NCBI GenBank assembly: GCA_037308085.1
Contig: CP147779.1
Coordinates: forward strand, 2,254,895 to 2,318,894
DNA from: Promethearchaeati archaeon SRVP18_Atabeyarchaeia-1
GTDB lineage: Archaea; Asgardarchaeota; Atabeyarchaeia; Atabeyarchaeales; Atabeyarchaeaceae
Direction of reading: 5' to 3'
Length of the DNA stretch: 64,000 nt
Part shown: in pieces, positions 2,344 through 9,193 of the stretch
How the letters are laid out: the number at the start of each line of letters is the position of its first letter
Position numbering within the stretch: the first letter of the stretch is position 1
Made by a program: the position numbers and the translations under genes
Notes under the pieces: generated by a model
The model's input: the letters and a program-made list of their open reading frames with translations, nothing else
The model's database searches: none
What the model was told of the DNA's origin: nothing

Positions 2344-2489
2344 TGTTTTTGGAATTACCCGTTAGAGTGGCGCGCCAAGCGCTGATCCCTCGAAACGGGG
2401 TGCGCTGGACCCTTAGCCGCCCGAGACCAATAAACATAATAGCAAACAGTTCCGCGGTGTATACAAATAGGTCACGGGGTGCTGCAAGA

Positions 2490-2783
2490 ATGAGTGAGGT
2501 ATGCAACCTACAAGCAGAGCTCTGTAAAGTAATAGCCAACCCCAAGCGGATAAGAATGATCAACCTACTCAAAGATGGAGAAAAATCGGTGCTCGAAATA
2601 GCAAAAGGACTCGGCATAAGCCAATCCAATGCTTCGCAGCACCTTACTATCATGAGGGCAAAAGGAGTCGTACTTACCAGGGCAAGCGGGAGGGAAATCT
2701 ATTACAGACTCGCCATACCAGAGGTCGCCCGTGCCTGCGACCTTGTCGCTACAGCCCTGAGACGTATGAGAGAGACAAAATGA
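2490..2783 (+). CDS. ArsR/SmtB family HTH transcriptional regulator
   Basis: Only the C-terminal 97 aa of track ORF 1863..2783 is plausible coding, with ATG at 2490. 'LEIAKGLGISQSNASQHLTIMRAKGVV' is a classic ArsR recognition helix. The upstream part of the ORF overlaps the minus-strand DsrE-like gene. Confidence 0.75.
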   Translation: MSEVCNLQAELCKVIANPKRIRMINLLKDGEKSVLEIAKGLGISQSNASQHLTIMRAKGVVLTRASGREIYYRLAIPEVARACDLVATALRRMRETK

Positions 2784-3018
2784 AGTTTTGTTGGCCCACG
2801 GCTGAACGGGAAACGCATAATGCGAATGACCATCTCGGCTAGTCTCTTTCAGTTGTTTTGCAAGTTCTTTTCGTTGTTTACGGGACTTTATCGATTCAGA
2901 GGAGAAGGAACACTTAGATAAACTCTTAAATTTCTCGGAACGTAAGGAAAAGATAGGAGAATCCAAGAATAATCAAGAATAAGATCACTGCGCGAAAGAG
3001 GGGTGTGTCGTAAGAATA

Positions 3019-4368
3019 ATGGTAGACGAAGAAGTACCGAAGATCGTTACTCCTATCCCAGGTCCCAACGCCAGGAAAGTAATTGATGCTGACACGAAGT
3101 ACCTCGTAAAGTCCACGAAGACTGGTCCAGTTGTAGCGAAGCGTGCCTACGGAGCTGTGGTTGAGGATGTTGATGGAAACAAGCTGCTCGACTTCACTGT
3201 AGGCATATCAGTCTGCAATATTGGATACTGCCACCCTAAGGTCACTGAGGCGATAAAGGCACAGGCCGAGAAGTTGGTCCACTATGCCGGCCAGGACTAC
3301 TACTACGAAGAGCAGGTCAACTTGGCGAAGAAGCTCACTGAAATAACGCCAGGCAATTTCCAGAAGCAAGTGTTCCTCTCCAACTCCGGAACTGAGAGCA
3401 ATGAGGCTGCTATCAAACTCTGCAAGTTCCACCAGAAGCGCCACCAGTTCATCTCATTCATCGGAGCATTCCACGGCAGATCAATCGGCTCCGTGTCCCT
3501 GACTGCCTCGAAGCCGAACCACAAGGAAGGCTTTTTCCCCATGATGCCCGGAGTTAGCCATGTTCCTTACGCTTACTGTTACAGGTGCGCCTACAAGATG
3601 ACGTACCCGCAGTGTGGACTCTGGTGCGCTAAATACATAGAAGAGGTTCTGTTCAACAGCTACCTACCACCGACAGAAGTTGCTGCAGTCTTCGCCGAAC
3701 CGATTCAGGGCGAAGGAGGCTACGTGGTCCCACCTAGTGACTGGTACAAGGAAATCAAGCGAATATGCGAGAAGAACGGAATACTGTTCGTAGACGACGA
3801 AGTTCAGGCTGGAATGGGGCGAACAGGGAAATGGTTCTGCACTGAGCACTATGGAGTGGTTCCAGACATCTTGACAACGTCCAAAGCGATTGCATCCGGA
3901 ATACCGCTCGGTGCCACGGTGGTCAGAGCTGACATAGCCGACTGGAAAGAGGGATCTCATAGTAACACCTTTGGGGGAAACACGTTGGCATGTGTCGCCG
4001 CCGTGGCGACGATAAAGGTTATTGAGACCGAGAAGCTGCTTGATAACGCCACGAAGATGGGCGAGAAGGCGATGCGAAGACTCAACGAGATGAAAGAGAA
4101 GTACGAGATTATCGGCGACGTGAGAGGAAAAGGACTAATGATTGGCGTGGAGTTCGTTAAGGACAAGAAGACCAAGGAAAGATACTTCGAAGCGCATGAT
4201 GCTATACCGGATATTGCCATGAAGAAGGGGCTCGTCCTCTTGCCATGCGGCAAGAACGGGGTTCGCATAATTCCTCCGCTTAACATTGACGAGAAGCTAC
4301 TCGAGAAGGGACTCATGATCTTCGAGGACACCGTGAAGGAGTTCTCAAAGCAGGCGCCCAAGAAGTAG
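3019..4368 (+). CDS. class-III PLP-dependent aminotransferase (GABA/acetylornithine aminotransferase-like)
   Basis: 449 aa. 'LLDFTVGISVCNIGYCHP', 'FIGAFHGRS', 'DEVQAGMGRTG', and a PLP-lysine region 'TTSKAIASGIPLGA'. Confidence 0.85.
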   Translation: MVDEEVPKIVTPIPGPNARKVIDADTKYLVKSTKTGPVVAKRAYGAVVEDVDGNKLLDFTVGISVCNIGYCHPKVTEAIKAQAEKLVHYAGQDYYYEEQVNLAKKLTEITPGNFQKQVFLSNSGTESNEAAIKLCKFHQKRHQFISFIGAFHGRSIGSVSLTASKPNHKEGFFPMMPGVSHVPYAYCYRCAYKMTYPQCGLWCAKYIEEVLFNSYLPPTEVAAVFAEPIQGEGGYVVPPSDWYKEIKRICEKNGILFVDDEVQAGMGRTGKWFCTEHYGVVPDILTTSKAIASGIPLGATVVRADIADWKEGSHSNTFGGNTLACVAAVATIKVIETEKLLDNATKMGEKAMRRLNEMKEKYEIIGDVRGKGLMIGVEFVKDKKTKERYFEAHDAIPDIAMKKGLVLLPCGKNGVRIIPPLNIDEKLLEKGLMIFEDTVKEFSKQAPKK

Positions 4369-5190: not shown

Positions 5191-6057
5191 TCAGAATCGT
5201 TCTATCCAGCTCTGCTTACCGCCGTTGCCAGAGTACCCGAAGAATCGCTCAGCAACTAGGCGTGTAGTCTCGGGTTCAATAATCTTGTCGTTGAGCTTGC
5301 TTGGCGAGAGAGACGACGCGTTGCTAAATATGGTCAGGATCTTGGCCTTTGCGTAGTCGATTTGGCCCTGTTCGATTCTGCGCGCCAGCTCTTTGGAAAA
5401 TTCTGTTGACTCAGTTCCGAGGACACTGGAATTGACCATATCGACAATCGCGCCCAGCTGCCCACCGTCCATTTCGGATTCTACTTCTCCGATCAGGCTC
5501 AAGGGCAGTCCCACTAGGTTTCCTTCTTCGTGAACCGAGTTGCACCACAGAGTCAAACCAAAGCATCCTCGAAAGTCTCGCGGAATGAGGTTAGTCATGA
5601 ATGCGATCATGTTCCTTACTTGCCAGTCTTCGCCTACAACCATGACCTTCTTTCCCCCCACGAGCGATTGTAGGGCTGAATCGAATTTCCCTGGAATCCG
5701 CACGCGGGGAACAGCAAACGGTCCTGGCTCGTCTTCGTATTCGCGCACAAAGTCGCCGTCCAAGCCATCCTTGACAGACTCCCTAAGAAGCCCTTCATAT
5801 TGGAAGAGGTCAACATCTCTCCTATCAGTAAAGATAAAGGCGCAACCGAAGCCTGAGTCGACTGACATCTTGTAGTAGGAGACCGCCGTGCCCGTTTCTC
5901 CAACCGGAAACGACTTCAAGACTTCGTCGGGTGGGAGCCCCAAAGGCAGAGACTTGAGTGAGAGCAGTTTCTTGATATGAGGAGAAAGAACACCATTACT
6001 AGCTATGATTTCTACGCCGCTCTTGCGATTGAATGACAGGAAGGTTCTTATCATCAT
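5191..6057 (-). CDS. hypothetical protein, third gene of the Arf-like GTPase operon
   Basis: 288 aa, 62 bp downstream of the membrane-protein gene on the same strand. No recognisable family. The N-terminal about 80 aa is weakly reminiscent of the paralog pair at 62259..63686. Confidence 0.45.
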   Translation of the reverse strand: MMIRTFLSFNRKSGVEIIASNGVLSPHIKKLLSLKSLPLGLPPDEVLKSFPVGETGTAVSYYKMSVDSGFGCAFIFTDRRDVDLFQYEGLLRESVKDGLDGDFVREYEDEPGPFAVPRVRIPGKFDSALQSLVGGKKVMVVGEDWQVRNMIAFMTNLIPRDFRGCFGLTLWCNSVHEEGNLVGLPLSLIGEVESEMDGGQLGAIVDMVNSSVLGTESTEFSKELARRIEQGQIDYAKAKILTIFSNASSLSPSKLNDKIIEPETTRLVAERFFGYSGNGGKQSWIERF

Positions 6058-6118
6058 AGCCTGCCCACCCCCGAAATGATCGCCCCTGTCTACTGTAGAG
6101 ATCTGGTCCCCTCACGTT

Positions 6119-6874
6119 TCACTTTGCAGTCTTTGGCATTATGCCCAATCTGACTTGAAGCCATACCGGCATGCTGAAACCGACATAGAACACGACCAGC
6201 GATGGGATTGCCACAAATGGCACCTCAAATATGCCGAGGAAAACCCAGAACTCCGGCGACAAGCCAAGGATGTAGAACTGCCCCCCTTGTACAAGAAGTG
6301 TAGACACCGACTCCGCAATGATCCACAGTGACAGCGGAATTCCTATCAGCCTCGCCCTAACCTTATGAAAGAGCTTAGTGCTTTTCCTGCCACTCATCAG
6401 CATGCTTGCTGATATGATGAGGGCTATCAGAGGAGTCAAAGCAGCGGCGAAAAGAGCCTCAGTGTTCCATACCAGTGGCCACCCGGGAATAACCTGGTAC
6501 CCATAGTAGAAGCCAGACACCTCCGCGAGGACCCACCACGCAGCCACGCCAATCTTAGCTGGTATGGCGTACTTGCCTCTAGTCCTGCTGAGGTTCAGCG
6601 CGAAGAGAGTCAACAGAGCAACACATGTAAAAGCTGAAATCAGCCGACCGAACATGTATACTGGCGCTACTGCAAAGAGCAAACCGAACACTTTGCAGGC
6701 GTAGTATGCCGTGCCAATCGCAAAGAATCCCACAAAATAGAACGTCAGTCTCTCATTCATAAGCTTCCTAAGCTTCACAACCGAGTAGACTGTCAGAACT
6801 GACGAAAGTATCAGGACAGGGATACTGACTTCAAATTCAAGGAGATCGAATTCAGTGCCAAAAGGCAATCCCAC
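6119..6874 (-). CDS. polytopic membrane protein (about 7 TM), hypothetical
   Basis: 251 aa and highly hydrophobic. Starts 25 bp downstream of the GTPase gene. Confidence 0.5.
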   Translation of the reverse strand: MGLPFGTEFDLLEFEVSIPVLILSSVLTVYSVVKLRKLMNERLTFYFVGFFAIGTAYYACKVFGLLFAVAPVYMFGRLISAFTCVALLTLFALNLSRTRGKYAIPAKIGVAAWWVLAEVSGFYYGYQVIPGWPLVWNTEALFAAALTPLIALIISASMLMSGRKSTKLFHKVRARLIGIPLSLWIIAESVSTLLVQGGQFYILGLSPEFWVFLGIFEVPFVAIPSLVVFYVGFSMPVWLQVRLGIMPKTAK

Positions 6875-6898
6875 TCCACACCCCCAAGCTAAGGCTTC

Positions 6899-7489
6899 TC
6901 ACTTCTGCTCCCGCACCTTGTCAACGAGGTATTCGAAGGCCTCTTTGAGTCCATCACCGTACATTCCGCTGGTTTTGACCACGTGCACGCTGTGCCCCTT
7001 CAACAGATTGTCGACTCCATAACTCTCAAGAATCTCCTCCTCGGTCATTGGGTTCTTGTCCCGCAAGTCCTGCTTATTCGCCATTACCAGGACTGGAATT
7101 CCGTCATTTAACAGACTTACTGCATATTCGAAGATCTTCCTGTTCTCTGCAATGTTGGCGCGGTCAGTTGCGTCCACCACGAAGATGACTCCTCCAGGGG
7201 ACTGTCTGACCCCAAGTTCCCAGAATACCTGGCGGTATACTTGTTGGCCTCCGACGTCGCATGCTATGAAGTTCCATCCCTCAAACTCAAAGTTCTCGAA
7301 GTCGATCCCGTGTGTTGGTCTGATCTGCATTTGATGCCCGTCTTCCAAGACAACCTTTCCGCTTGCGGGAGGTTGTCCCGTTTTCATGTAATAGAGCATT
7401 GTTGTCTTTCCGGCCCCACCGGGACCCAACAGGCATATTTTGATCCTCTTCTTCGATCGAAACAGGTTCTTGACCCACCCCGGCGGCAT
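6899..7489 (-). CDS. Arf/Arl-family small GTPase
   Basis: 196 aa. G1 'GPGGAGKTT', switch-I 'PTHGIDFE', G3 'DVGGQ', G4 'NKQD', and an Arf-specific 'TSG..G.GL.EA..YL' G5 region. The basic N-terminal 'VKNLFRSKKRIKICLLG' resembles the Arf amphipathic helix. Confidence 0.8.
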   Translation of the reverse strand: MPPGWVKNLFRSKKRIKICLLGPGGAGKTTMLYYMKTGQPPASGKVVLEDGHQMQIRPTHGIDFENFEFEGWNFIACDVGGQQVYRQVFWELGVRQSPGGVIFVVDATDRANIAENRKIFEYAVSLLNDGIPVLVMANKQDLRDKNPMTEEEILESYGVDNLLKGHSVHVVKTSGMYGDGLKEAFEYLVDKVREQK

Positions 7490-7777
7490 CGACTACCACC
7501 TCTTGCTGATTTCACATGACTCTTATCACTGCTTTTATCCTTGTGGAAAACTCGGCACAAAAGTCAGCCGAAGCTACGATATTCGCAAGCAGTCAAGACC
7601 ATGCTGATGAGTTAGAGGACGAAAGTCTTGTAGGGAACAAAATCTGCAATCAGCTTCGCTATCGTCAGGTTTGACTTCTCTCTCGCCCGAGTCGGCTATA
7701 CTGGCAAAGATGTTGCCCATGAAGGTGAGCCAAATACCAATGCCGCTAGCCCCAACCAGAAAAGACACGGATCTCGC

Positions 7778-9193
7778 TCACAGCGGCGGTCTCTTGTTCT
7801 GCCACGGGTGAACTTTTTCGTAAGCTCTCGATGCTTTGAGCACACCCATGTCATCGTAGCGGTTTCCTATGATCTGCAGCCCAACCGGGAGACCCTTTGA
7901 CGTGAAGCCTATTGGTATCGAGGCCGCAGGCTGGCCTGTGAAGTTGAATGGGTAGGTGAAAGGCATCCAAGCTATGGGTCCAACTCCTTTTCCAGCGATC
8001 TTGCTTGGCGTACCTGCTGCGTTTGGCTGGATCTCGAAGGCAGCGACCGCTGTGACCGGCGTTAGAAGGAGGTTGTACTGCTCGAAGATCTTCCTCATTC
8101 TCTTCCAGAGTTCCTCTCTCTTGTACTCTATTCTAATGATGTCCCTTGCCTTCAAGCCCGGCTCGAGAGCTAGAAAGCTGGAGTAGTAGGGGTACAGAAC
8201 CTTTTTCCATTCTTCAAGGCGCTTGTCAATCGTAGCGACTGTTCTAGCAACGGTCAGGTTTATCAGATCGTTCTCCATATTTGGCAGATCCGGCTTTATC
8301 TCAGTCACCTTGCAGTCAAGCATTTCGAAGGAGAAGGCGGCTTTCCTCGTAAGGTTCTCGATATCCACATCGACCGCTGCGTACCCAAGGCTGGGGGTGT
8401 AGGCTATGTTCGCCCGATCTATTCCCTTGTCGATGTTCTCCAGGTAGCGTTCCCCTGTAGCTGGCAAAGAGAATCTGTCCCTCTCATCAGGACCAGCTAT
8501 GATGTCAAGCGTCGCGGCTGCGTCGGACACAGCCCTAGTTATTGGCCCATCACAGCTGAGGGTTTCCCACATGGAGAGGCTTGGATAGTCTGGAACGCGT
8601 CCAAAGGAGGGCTTTATGCCGTAGACGCCGCAGAAATTTGCGGGTATCCTTATTGAGCCTCCTCCGTCACTTCCAGAAGCTATGGGTCCGAAGCCAGAGG
8701 CTACGGCTGCGGCTGCTCCTCCGCTTGAGCCACCTGTCGTTCTGGACTTGTCCCAAGGGTTGCGTGCCGCCCCAAATACTTGGTTATCCGTGTAGGCGAT
8801 GAGACCGAATTCTGGTACGTTCGTTTTTCCTATTATAACCGCGCCAGCTTTTCTTAGCCTCTCAACTATGACTGCATCTTCTTCTGGAACATAATTCTCG
8901 TACAGCTTGGAGCCGAAGGTCGTGCGAATACCCTTGGTATAGACTAGGTCCTTGATCGTGATCGGAACCCCGGTTAATGGACCTACTTTCTTGCCATCCT
9001 TGATATCCTTGGCGGCTTTTCTTGCAGAAGCCATCGCGCCCGCTTCCGTGAGAGTTACGATGGCATTAAGCTCGGGGTTATATCGCTTGACCCTTGAAAG
9101 GATTTCTTCAAGAACATCAACGGGCGACAGCTCACCTTTCGCATAAGCCTGGCTGAGTTCTATCGCGCTCATCCAACAAGTTTCTTTAACCAA
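7778..9193 (-). CDS. amidase-signature family enzyme (GatA/amidase)
   Basis: 471 aa. 'GGSSGGAAAAVASGFGPIASGSDGGGSIRIPA' amidase signature. Confidence 0.85.
   Translation of the reverse strand: MVKETCWMSAIELSQAYAKGELSPVDVLEEILSRVKRYNPELNAIVTLTEAGAMASARKAAKDIKDGKKVGPLTGVPITIKDLVYTKGIRTTFGSKLYENYVPEEDAVIVERLRKAGAVIIGKTNVPEFGLIAYTDNQVFGAARNPWDKSRTTGGSSGGAAAAVASGFGPIASGSDGGGSIRIPANFCGVYGIKPSFGRVPDYPSLSMWETLSCDGPITRAVSDAAATLDIIAGPDERDRFSLPATGERYLENIDKGIDRANIAYTPSLGYAAVDVDIENLTRKAAFSFEMLDCKVTEIKPDLPNMENDLINLTVARTVATIDKRLEEWKKVLYPYYSSFLALEPGLKARDIIRIEYKREELWKRMRKIFEQYNLLLTPVTAVAAFEIQPNAAGTPSKIAGKGVGPIAWMPFTYPFNFTGQPAASIPIGFTSKGLPVGLQIIGNRYDDMGVLKASRAYEKVHPWQNKRPPL

Follow-up and report, generated by a model that had tools for sequence, protein, structure and literature searches.

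A conserved Asgard gene set joining an Arf-family GTPase, a predicted compact longin-DENN protein and a seven-helix membrane protein

What might regulate an archaeal Arf-family GTPase is the question raised by a three-gene locus in a 64,000-nt stretch of contig CP147779.1 (hereafter the window, whose proteins serve as the reference for all identity figures), from the complete, 2.8-Mb genome of the wetland-soil Asgard archaeon SRVP18_Atabeyarchaeia-1 (PMC11291895). An Arf in an Asgard genome is not by itself new: this one was already annotated, and Arf GTPases of Asgard archaea were described earlier in two experimental papers, which found that they behave like eukaryotic Arfs and both relied on yeast or human regulators (10.1101/2024.02.28.582541; PMC11914678). 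In a Foldseek screen of 52 Asgard proteomes, Zhu et al. obtained no convincing Sec7, ArfGAP or C9orf72-type regulator, and they state that native Asgard Arf regulators 'remain to be established' (PMC11914678). Moreover, the genes of Asgard GTPases and of candidate regulators as a rule do not share an operon, so that matching the two is hard (Tran et al., PMC10933270). The locus is an exception to this pattern, since it offers a defined Arf, a 288-aa protein (X) predicted to be a DENN module, and a polytopic membrane protein as partner, all of them assayable. With a probability that we put at roughly 0.7, the three would constitute a membrane-tethered DENN regulator and an Arf switch with its own membrane partner. 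What is added here is the hidden DENN module, a conserved Arf/DENN/membrane protein gene set, in some lineages with a fourth protein (Y), and its occurrence in Hodarchaeota. The three genes of the window are:

6899..7489, minus strand: Arf-family small GTPase gene (196 aa), ATG start
6119..6874, minus strand: gene of the polytopic membrane protein with seven transmembrane helices (7TM protein, 251 aa), GTG start; the NCBI version has 249 aa and is two residues shorter
5191..6057, minus strand: X gene (288 aa), ATG start

The three same-strand open reading frames across 5191-7489 are thus where the initial annotation had placed them, in a host of the Asgard type that it had expected for an Arf-like GTPase. 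The intergenic gaps are as short as it claimed, measuring 24 nt (Arf/7TM) and 61 nt (7TM/X); its figures of 25 and 62 bp follow another counting convention. A purine-rich motif resembling a Shine-Dalgarno sequence stands before every gene: GAGGTGG at 7496-7502 (Arf), GGGGGTG at 6879-6885 (7TM) and GGGGGTG at 6066-6072 (X). Because all three proteins are 100 % identical to annotated proteins of the Atabeyarchaeia-1 genome and have homologues elsewhere, the reading frames are, on these matches, real genes; NCBI lists the first as 'ADP-ribosylation factor-like protein' and both remaining ones as 'hypothetical protein'. The genes are predicted to form one transcription unit, which agrees with the earlier view that they are probably co-transcribed.

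Linkage of the three genes in relatives

Gene contexts of Arf, X and 7TM relatives were recovered from metagenomes and from genomes assembled from metagenomes (MAGs); they are as follows (TM, gene of the 7TM protein; Y, gene of the fourth protein):

Window: Arf-TM-X
L017: geranylgeranyl-reductase-family gene / Arf-TM-X; X shares 40 % and Arf 61 % identity with the window proteins
L005, L006: Arf-TM; contigs end
L003, L001: Arf-X; no intervening TM gene
L007: X-TM-Arf-Y
L011: Arf-X-TM-Y; 88-kb contig
L014/L015: TM-X-Arf-Y
L010: TM-X-Arf
L009: TM-X
L002: Y-Arf-Arf-X
L016: Y-Arf-X; MAG named Candidatus Hodarchaeota archaeon
L008, 415-2560: frameshifted TM - X - Y fragments; decaying copy
L012, 6001-6888 / L013, 1267-2154: X-like gene alone (P0066); most divergent member

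The three genes, taken as a possible module in the initial annotation, are syntenic in many relatives: outside the window, linkage is found in 13 loci, which come from about nine to eleven independent lineages and show at least five gene orders, with 18-47 % identity to the window protein for X and 37-82 % for Arf, and with a G+C range of 31 to 50 %. Several gene pairs overlap or lie no more than 15 nt apart, such as X/TM in L007 (2 nt), X/TM (overlapping) and Arf/X (6 nt) in L011, X/Arf in L014 and TM/X in L010 (both overlapping). The X gene most consistently adjoins both the Arf and the TM genes, as expected of a bridging subunit. In the decaying copy of L008, the TM gene is spread over three frames and still ends with the C-terminal motif of its family, X is intact, and frameshifted Y fragments lie downstream, so that the order TM-X-Y is kept despite decay; this copy contains no Arf gene.

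A fortuitous adjacency of three functionally unrelated genes would agree with the general rule that Asgard GTPases are not in operons with regulators (Tran et al., PMC10933270), and with the solitary X-like gene of L012/13. Against it stand the number of loci and lineages, the variety of gene orders at such low X identity, the overlapping frames, and the gene order still visible in L008. On these synteny data it is effectively refuted, and the conserved linkage is the strongest evidence for a module.

Two further observations concern these loci. The solitary P0066 may be an X paralogue with another partner. Convergent to the Y-Arf-X genes of L016, a minus-strand gene at 2384-3307 encodes a 307-aa protein whose Arf domain is more canonical in sequence (WDLGGQ) and which is extended at its C-terminus by about 120 aa.

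The encoded proteins

At the sequence level, X is as the initial annotation described it, a protein of no recognisable family: Pfam and NCBIfam gave no match even at E<=10, X profiles built from 2 and 21 sequences found nothing significant among PDB sequences, a word-indexed homologue search returned a single relative, and a profile scan of genome contigs with an alignment of close X relatives gave no match. When 1.84 billion cluster representatives were searched exhaustively with HMMER, 20 family members came up, nearly all of 285-312 aa, and by this count the X family is rare. These relatives decided the quality of structure prediction: AlphaFold2 with a two-sequence alignment reached a mean predicted local distance difference (pLDDT) score of 33, whereas 19 more relatives made a confident model possible (pLDDT 89.9; predicted TM-score, pTM, 0.89).

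At the level of fold, the absence of a recognisable family does not hold. The model has the two-lobed layout of a DENN module, in which residues 1-99 follow the longin order beta-beta-alpha-beta-beta-beta-alpha and, after a linker, residues ~125-275 form the DENN alpha/beta core with a helical tail. Foldseek against the PDB gave 10 matches at E<=1e-3, and all ten are DENN-module chains, namely from DENND1B and DENND1A (both with Rab35), DENND10, C9orf72 (including the 7mge chain with ARF1), SMCR8, FLCN and FNIP2; after these come unrelated proteins at low probability. The best full-length matches are DENND1B (E 2.8e-8, TMq 0.48) and DENND1A (E 7.2e-8, TMq 0.46). Fold comparison of X with individual structures gave the following values:

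Isolated folliculin DENN domain (3v42): 11.8
DENND10: 11.6
DENND1A: 11.3
SMCR8: 11.2
Lokiarchaeal longin domain (8yqg): 9.7
Classical longins (Ykt6, Sec22b, NPRL2, Lst4): 8-9

X is therefore, as modelled, a complete and very compact longin+DENN module that sequence models do not detect. DENN domains and longins are already among the eukaryotic signature proteins of Asgard archaea. If the model is right, a full longin+DENN module can be just 288 aa long and evade all sequence-based family models, and because so compact a module escapes such models, archaeal DENN surveys are probably incomplete.

Residues invariant in the X family are R11, L37-P38-x-G40-x-P42, G71, G142, P159 and G214, with R11 present in all 22 sequences compared and P38 and G40 in 23 of 23. 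In the predicted longin, R11 falls in the beta1-beta2 loop, the LPxGxP motif follows alpha1 and G71 lies in the beta4-beta5 loop, which would place all three in loops at the same end of the sheet as the catalytic pocket of FLCN, SMCR8 and NPRL2. In longins of GTPase-activating proteins (GAPs), a GP/WD motif sits in the beta1-beta2 loop beside the arginine finger, and the GP motif is specific to GAP longins and not found in the DENND family (PMC12290439). Across the X family, Gly is common at the GP position and is followed by Pro only in P0055, while some members carry G-[RKH]-G in the beta4-beta5 loop; the adjacent beta1-beta2 loop holds the invariant R11, for which a catalytic role is putative.

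These features bear on what X does with the GTPase. The initial annotation took it for an unknown effector; a partner protein it may well be, and more probably a regulator than an effector, because longin+DENN is the fold of GTPase GEFs (guanine nucleotide exchange factors) and GAPs. X could still be a non-catalytic effector or adaptor; the Arf switch would then have as its output how active a 7TM transporter or receptor is, or where it is located. Scaffolding is another known use of longin and DENN-type domains, DENND10 of the Commander complex is among the best matches of X, and catalysis by X is putative. However, most characterised DENN modules act directly on the nucleotide state of a GTPase, and catalysis, or binding specific to one nucleotide state, accounts more readily for an invariant Arg in a loop facing the GTPase; we consider an effector unlikely.

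The GTPase is, as claimed, a genuine member of the Arf family. Pfam Arf (PF00025) is by far the best model, at 97.1 bits (E 1e-27, profile positions 5-173 of 174, family cut-off 22.3), against 33.7 bits for Ras, 23.5 for Roc and 19.2 for Gtr1_RagA. The best solved structure is human ARF1 (1hur; E 1.5e-19, 73.5 bits); for the Asgard ArfR structures 8oun/8oul the E-values run from 3e-18 to 2e-15, and GerdArfR1 (8oun) is, at 69.2 bits, on par with human ARF1. The motifs quoted in the initial annotation are present, comprising RPTHG at 57-61 (switch I), DVGGQ at 78-82, NKQD at 138-141 and TSGMYGDGL at 173-181; the P-loop reads GPGGAGKT. The interswitch, G61-G81, spans 21 residues, the same as G50-G70 of human Arf1, and the catalytic Gln82 follows DVGG; on these features the interswitch toggle of Arfs is based. 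Arf family membership is established on this sequence evidence, and placement in the ArfR clade of Vargova et al., which unlike ArfL includes the eukaryotic Arf family and SRbeta, is likely; outside its own clade, the best matches are eukaryotic Arf/Arl proteins at 31-38 % identity.

The N-terminus reads MPPGWVKNLFRSKKRIK, and the N-terminal extension noted earlier is also present. Its 17 residues (WVKNLFRSKKRIK) have a hydrophobic moment of 0.55-0.76 for 11-mers, as compared with 0.55 for the Arf1 helix, than which it is more basic and less hydrophobic, and a W/F-x-x-x-L-F pattern within the N-terminus is conserved in the subfamily alignment. The start, MPPGW, has no Gly2 for N-myristoylation. 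This does not exclude Arf membership, because the crystallised ArfRs and Arl8 are likewise without that signal.

In an alignment with human Arf1, a switch II signature, Y[RQ]..FW.LGV.Q, is common to the linked GTPases and distinguishes them from eukaryotic Arfs. On this basis they form their own subfamily, and a dedicated Arf subfamily travels with X. An insertion of 11-13 aa (ASGKVVLEDGHQMQ; residues ~43-56, window 7322-7363, minus strand) between helix alpha1 and switch I is restricted to the clade of the window, of Atabeyarchaeia type, and is not found in L007-type orthologues, other distant relatives or eukaryotic Arf1. The ArfR/AArf GTPases described from Asgard archaea have an N-terminal amphipathic helix, which is putative in the window Arf, and, like the window Arf, no myristoylation signal (10.1101/2024.02.28.582541; PMC11914678); the switch II signature and, in the window clade, the insertion set the present subfamily apart from them.

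For the membrane protein, the earlier count of seven helices agrees with hydropathy and the positive-inside rule, which predict seven transmembrane helices with the N-terminus outside and the C-terminus cytosolic in all five homologues; segments rich in K/R follow TM1, TM3 and TM5 and are also present in the C-terminal tail. Conserved on the cytosolic side are two elements: the loop after TM5, RKSTKLFHKVR in the window and R.S.K...KVR across very distant members, and a C-terminal motif, MPVWLQVRLGIMP in the window and P..LQ...GI[LM]P across very distant members. Pfam and NCBIfam, including PQ-loop and rhodopsin-like families, gave no match at E<=10, a five-sequence profile matched no PDB sequence, and the word-indexed homologue search found no relative; by these searches the protein appears to belong to no described family. 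The window-type and AT-rich-type 7TM families are linked by hhalign (probability 89.5 %, E 2e-6) and by tblastn of the L007 protein against L017 (E 7e-7), and homologues adjoin Arf and/or X in L005, L006, L017, L007, L009/L010, L011 and L014/15.

The fourth module member, Y, is about 350 aa long, carries an invariant GPLP[VL]AYH motif and is found in the AT-rich loci of Heimdall/Hod type, at these positions:

L007, 2628-3680: Y
L002, 4006-5040: Y
L011, 7872-8984: Y
L014, 7506-8549: Y
L016, 3-737: Y

No copy of Y lies within the 64-kb window. Pfam and NCBIfam returned no match for it even at E<=10, and a four-sequence profile against PDB sequences gave nothing significant, its best match, a G-alpha core segment at E 0.14, being disregarded. 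A relationship of Y to X as paralogues was rejected at the sequence level (hhalign probability 0.1 %).

Proposed action of the module and known counterparts

If X regulates the Arf at a membrane, the Arf would alternate between a GDP form, with the N-terminal amphipathic segment tucked in, and a GTP form that binds the membrane. X would most likely bind the switch regions and set the nucleotide state, while the 7TM protein would most likely use its conserved cytosolic loop and C-terminal tail to keep X at the membrane and thereby localise the reaction there; a further role may be to couple something that it senses or transports to the Arf switch. We infer the contacts of X with Arf and with the 7TM protein, and likewise the direction of regulation and the downstream output. 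Of the membrane-remodelling or trafficking-like system envisaged in the initial annotation, the GTPase, a protein of regulator fold and a 7TM partner are there, and nothing found shows remodelling or trafficking.

Several observations weigh against a membrane-tethered DENN regulator. Arf and X adjoin with no TM gene between them in the close relatives L001 and L003, so that the 7TM protein is not obligatory at the locus, and the divergent P0066 gene is next to neither Arf nor TM. The Pfam DENN, uDENN, dDENN and folliculin models find nothing in X, P0051 or related proteins at E<=10, and the whole-module Foldseek TM-scores of X are modest (0.30-0.48), the arrangement of the lobes possibly being different. 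The clustering of the invariant residues in loops is argued from longin topology, not from coordinates. Window X has neither a GP motif at the end of the beta1-beta2 loop (R11-K-S-G14-V15) nor a basic residue in the beta4-beta5 loop (SGFGC). Finally, the window encodes a single DENN protein, unlike the heterodimeric GAP complexes.

The fold itself is compatible with either direction of regulation, being used by all known DENN-type GEFs (DENND1 on Rab35) and by longin-DENN GAP complexes (C9orf72-SMCR8 on ARF1, FLCN-FNIP2 on RagC). In the known GAP complexes two DENN proteins pair as a heterodimer, and bacterial mglBA co-encodes a GAP with its GTPase. Among DENN complexes, C9orf72-SMCR8 alone is known to have an Arf as its target, and it is a GAP (PMC12290439). 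For this reason, and in view of the invariant longin loop residues and the mglBA precedent, we lean slightly towards X acting as a GAP rather than a GEF, a tentative assignment that stays somewhat short of an even chance.

Alternatively, X might be a DENND1-type GEF, which the 7TM protein would place on the membrane to activate the Arf, much as membrane-anchored Sec12 acts on Sar1. To our knowledge no DENN-type GEF acts on an Arf-family GTPase. In the DENND1B complex the DENN lobe makes most of the Rab35 contacts, whereas the invariant residues of X concentrate in the longin lobe, and the presence of Y beside X in AT-rich lineages is compatible with a heteromeric, GAP-like assembly. In favour of a GEF, the best full-length Foldseek matches are the monomeric Rab35 GEFs DENND1B and DENND1A, X is a single complete module as in DENND proteins with no second DENN subunit in the window, and window X is without the GP motif and the canonical finger position of GAP longins (PMC12290439). 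Weighing both sides, we regard a GEF as a genuine possibility, though not the expected outcome.

The closest precedent of the locus is the operon of Liu et al., in which a LAMTOR1-like Roadblock protein, a Rab-like GTPase and a DENN protein form a candidate GEF module 'conserved in most Asgard archaea' (bioRxiv 10.1101/2020.10.19.343400; Nature 2021). Both are Asgard loci in which a small GTPase is paired with a DENN protein proposed to regulate it, and if the present locus were that operon it would add nothing new. This is quite improbable: the GTPase here is of Arf and not Rab type, neither the window unit nor the related loci contain a gene of Roadblock size, a 7TM protein absent from the account of Liu et al. 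is the constant third partner, and the X family is rare where theirs is widespread, the two DENN families being compared, and the loci set apart, by description only. Bacterial mglBA, which pairs the Roadblock-fold GAP MglB with the Ras-like MglA, differs in that MglB consists of one Roadblock domain and has no DENN lobe, MglA does not resemble an Arf, and a membrane partner is lacking.

Among eukaryotic proteins, DENND1A/B in complex with Rab35 (3tw8, 6ekk) are the best whole-module matches and, like X, combine longin (uDENN), DENN and helical tail in a single chain; they differ in having a Rab substrate and no membrane partner, share 8-9 % identity with X, and belong to families whose Pfam DENN models miss X. 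C9orf72-SMCR8-WDR41 with ARF1 (7mge) is a heterodimer of two much larger DENN proteins with a WD40 subunit, in contrast with the single 288-aa X; C9orf72-SMCR8 has an arginine finger in the beta4-beta5 loop and a GP motif, both missing from window X, and there is no sequence-level homology between them. Eukaryotic axes running from a membrane protein through a longin/DENN complex to a GTPase include PQLC2-C9orf72/SMCR8-ARF and SLC38A9-FLCN/FNIP-Rag. In the first, which of the eukaryotic arrangements looks most like the present locus and is a precedent for recruitment of an Arf-directed DENN complex by a polytopic membrane protein, the seven-helix lysosomal transporter PQLC2 recruits C9orf72-SMCR8-WDR41 (PMC7039192). 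The likeness to the present locus is an analogy in architecture only; the window 7TM protein has no detectable PQ-loop similarity (no Pfam match). The module might nevertheless be an archaeal prototype of a polytopic membrane protein - longin/DENN complex - Arf/Rag axis, in which the 7TM protein would sense or transport a solute and recruit X (with Y in the Heimdall/Hod-type lineages), X being the cognate GAP or GEF of a dedicated Arf; we offer this as speculation, more doubtful than not.

Among the papers open to searching, none brings Asgard, DENN, Arf and operon together. Gene neighbourhoods are analysed in neither of the two Asgard Arf papers, and the terms 'operon', 'neighbo…' and 'synten…' occur in neither (10.1101/2024.02.28.582541; PMC11914678). 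Through its modelled fold and its linkage, X becomes the first concrete candidate for regulating an archaeal Arf in its native setting. Should it prove to be one, regulator-coupled Arf switching at a membrane would already exist in Asgard archaea, including Hodarchaeales, and X would be the first native Asgard Arf regulator identified. Orthologous sets from several lineages, including Hodarchaeota, make Asgard Arf regulation experimentally testable.

Upstream boundary and neighbouring genes

Genes flanking the unit belong to ordinary metabolism, with an amidase and a GH1 glycosidase upstream and, downstream, a convergent AlaX-like editing protein and an aminotransferase; an Rfam scan of the window found no RNA family. 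Upstream of the Arf gene lie the following features:

7490..7588, minus strand: putative promoter and 5' leader of the operon, from a conserved upstream alignment (promoter function inferred)
7532-7540, minus strand: TATA-like GGATAAAAG, ~43-51 nt upstream of the Arf ATG
7582-7588, minus strand: TTGCGAA heptamer, lying some 40 nt upstream of the TATA-like box
7618..7665, minus strand: relic of the C-terminus of a geranylgeranyl-reductase-family gene, 16 codons (IAKLIADFVPYKTFVL*), by tblastn

In an alignment of the Arf upstream regions of the window, L004, L005 and L003, the TTGCGAA heptamer is invariant and the A-rich TATA-like box is conserved. The heptamer could be a transcription-factor site.

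The amidase gene (7778-9193) was considered as a fourth gene of the operon and rejected, given a 288-nt gap, the conserved promoter-like region and a different upstream gene in relatives. An intact geranylgeranyl-reductase-family gene lies directly upstream of Arf in L004, L005 and L017 (PF22578 in L017), and the upstream proteins of L004/L005 match 7618-7665 at 81 % over 16 aa (E 6e-4, tblastn). Because relatives carry this gene where the window retains its relic, the amidase is a recent neighbour and the unit begins at the Arf gene; the relic is what is left of the former upstream neighbour and marks a breakpoint of rearrangement near 7670.

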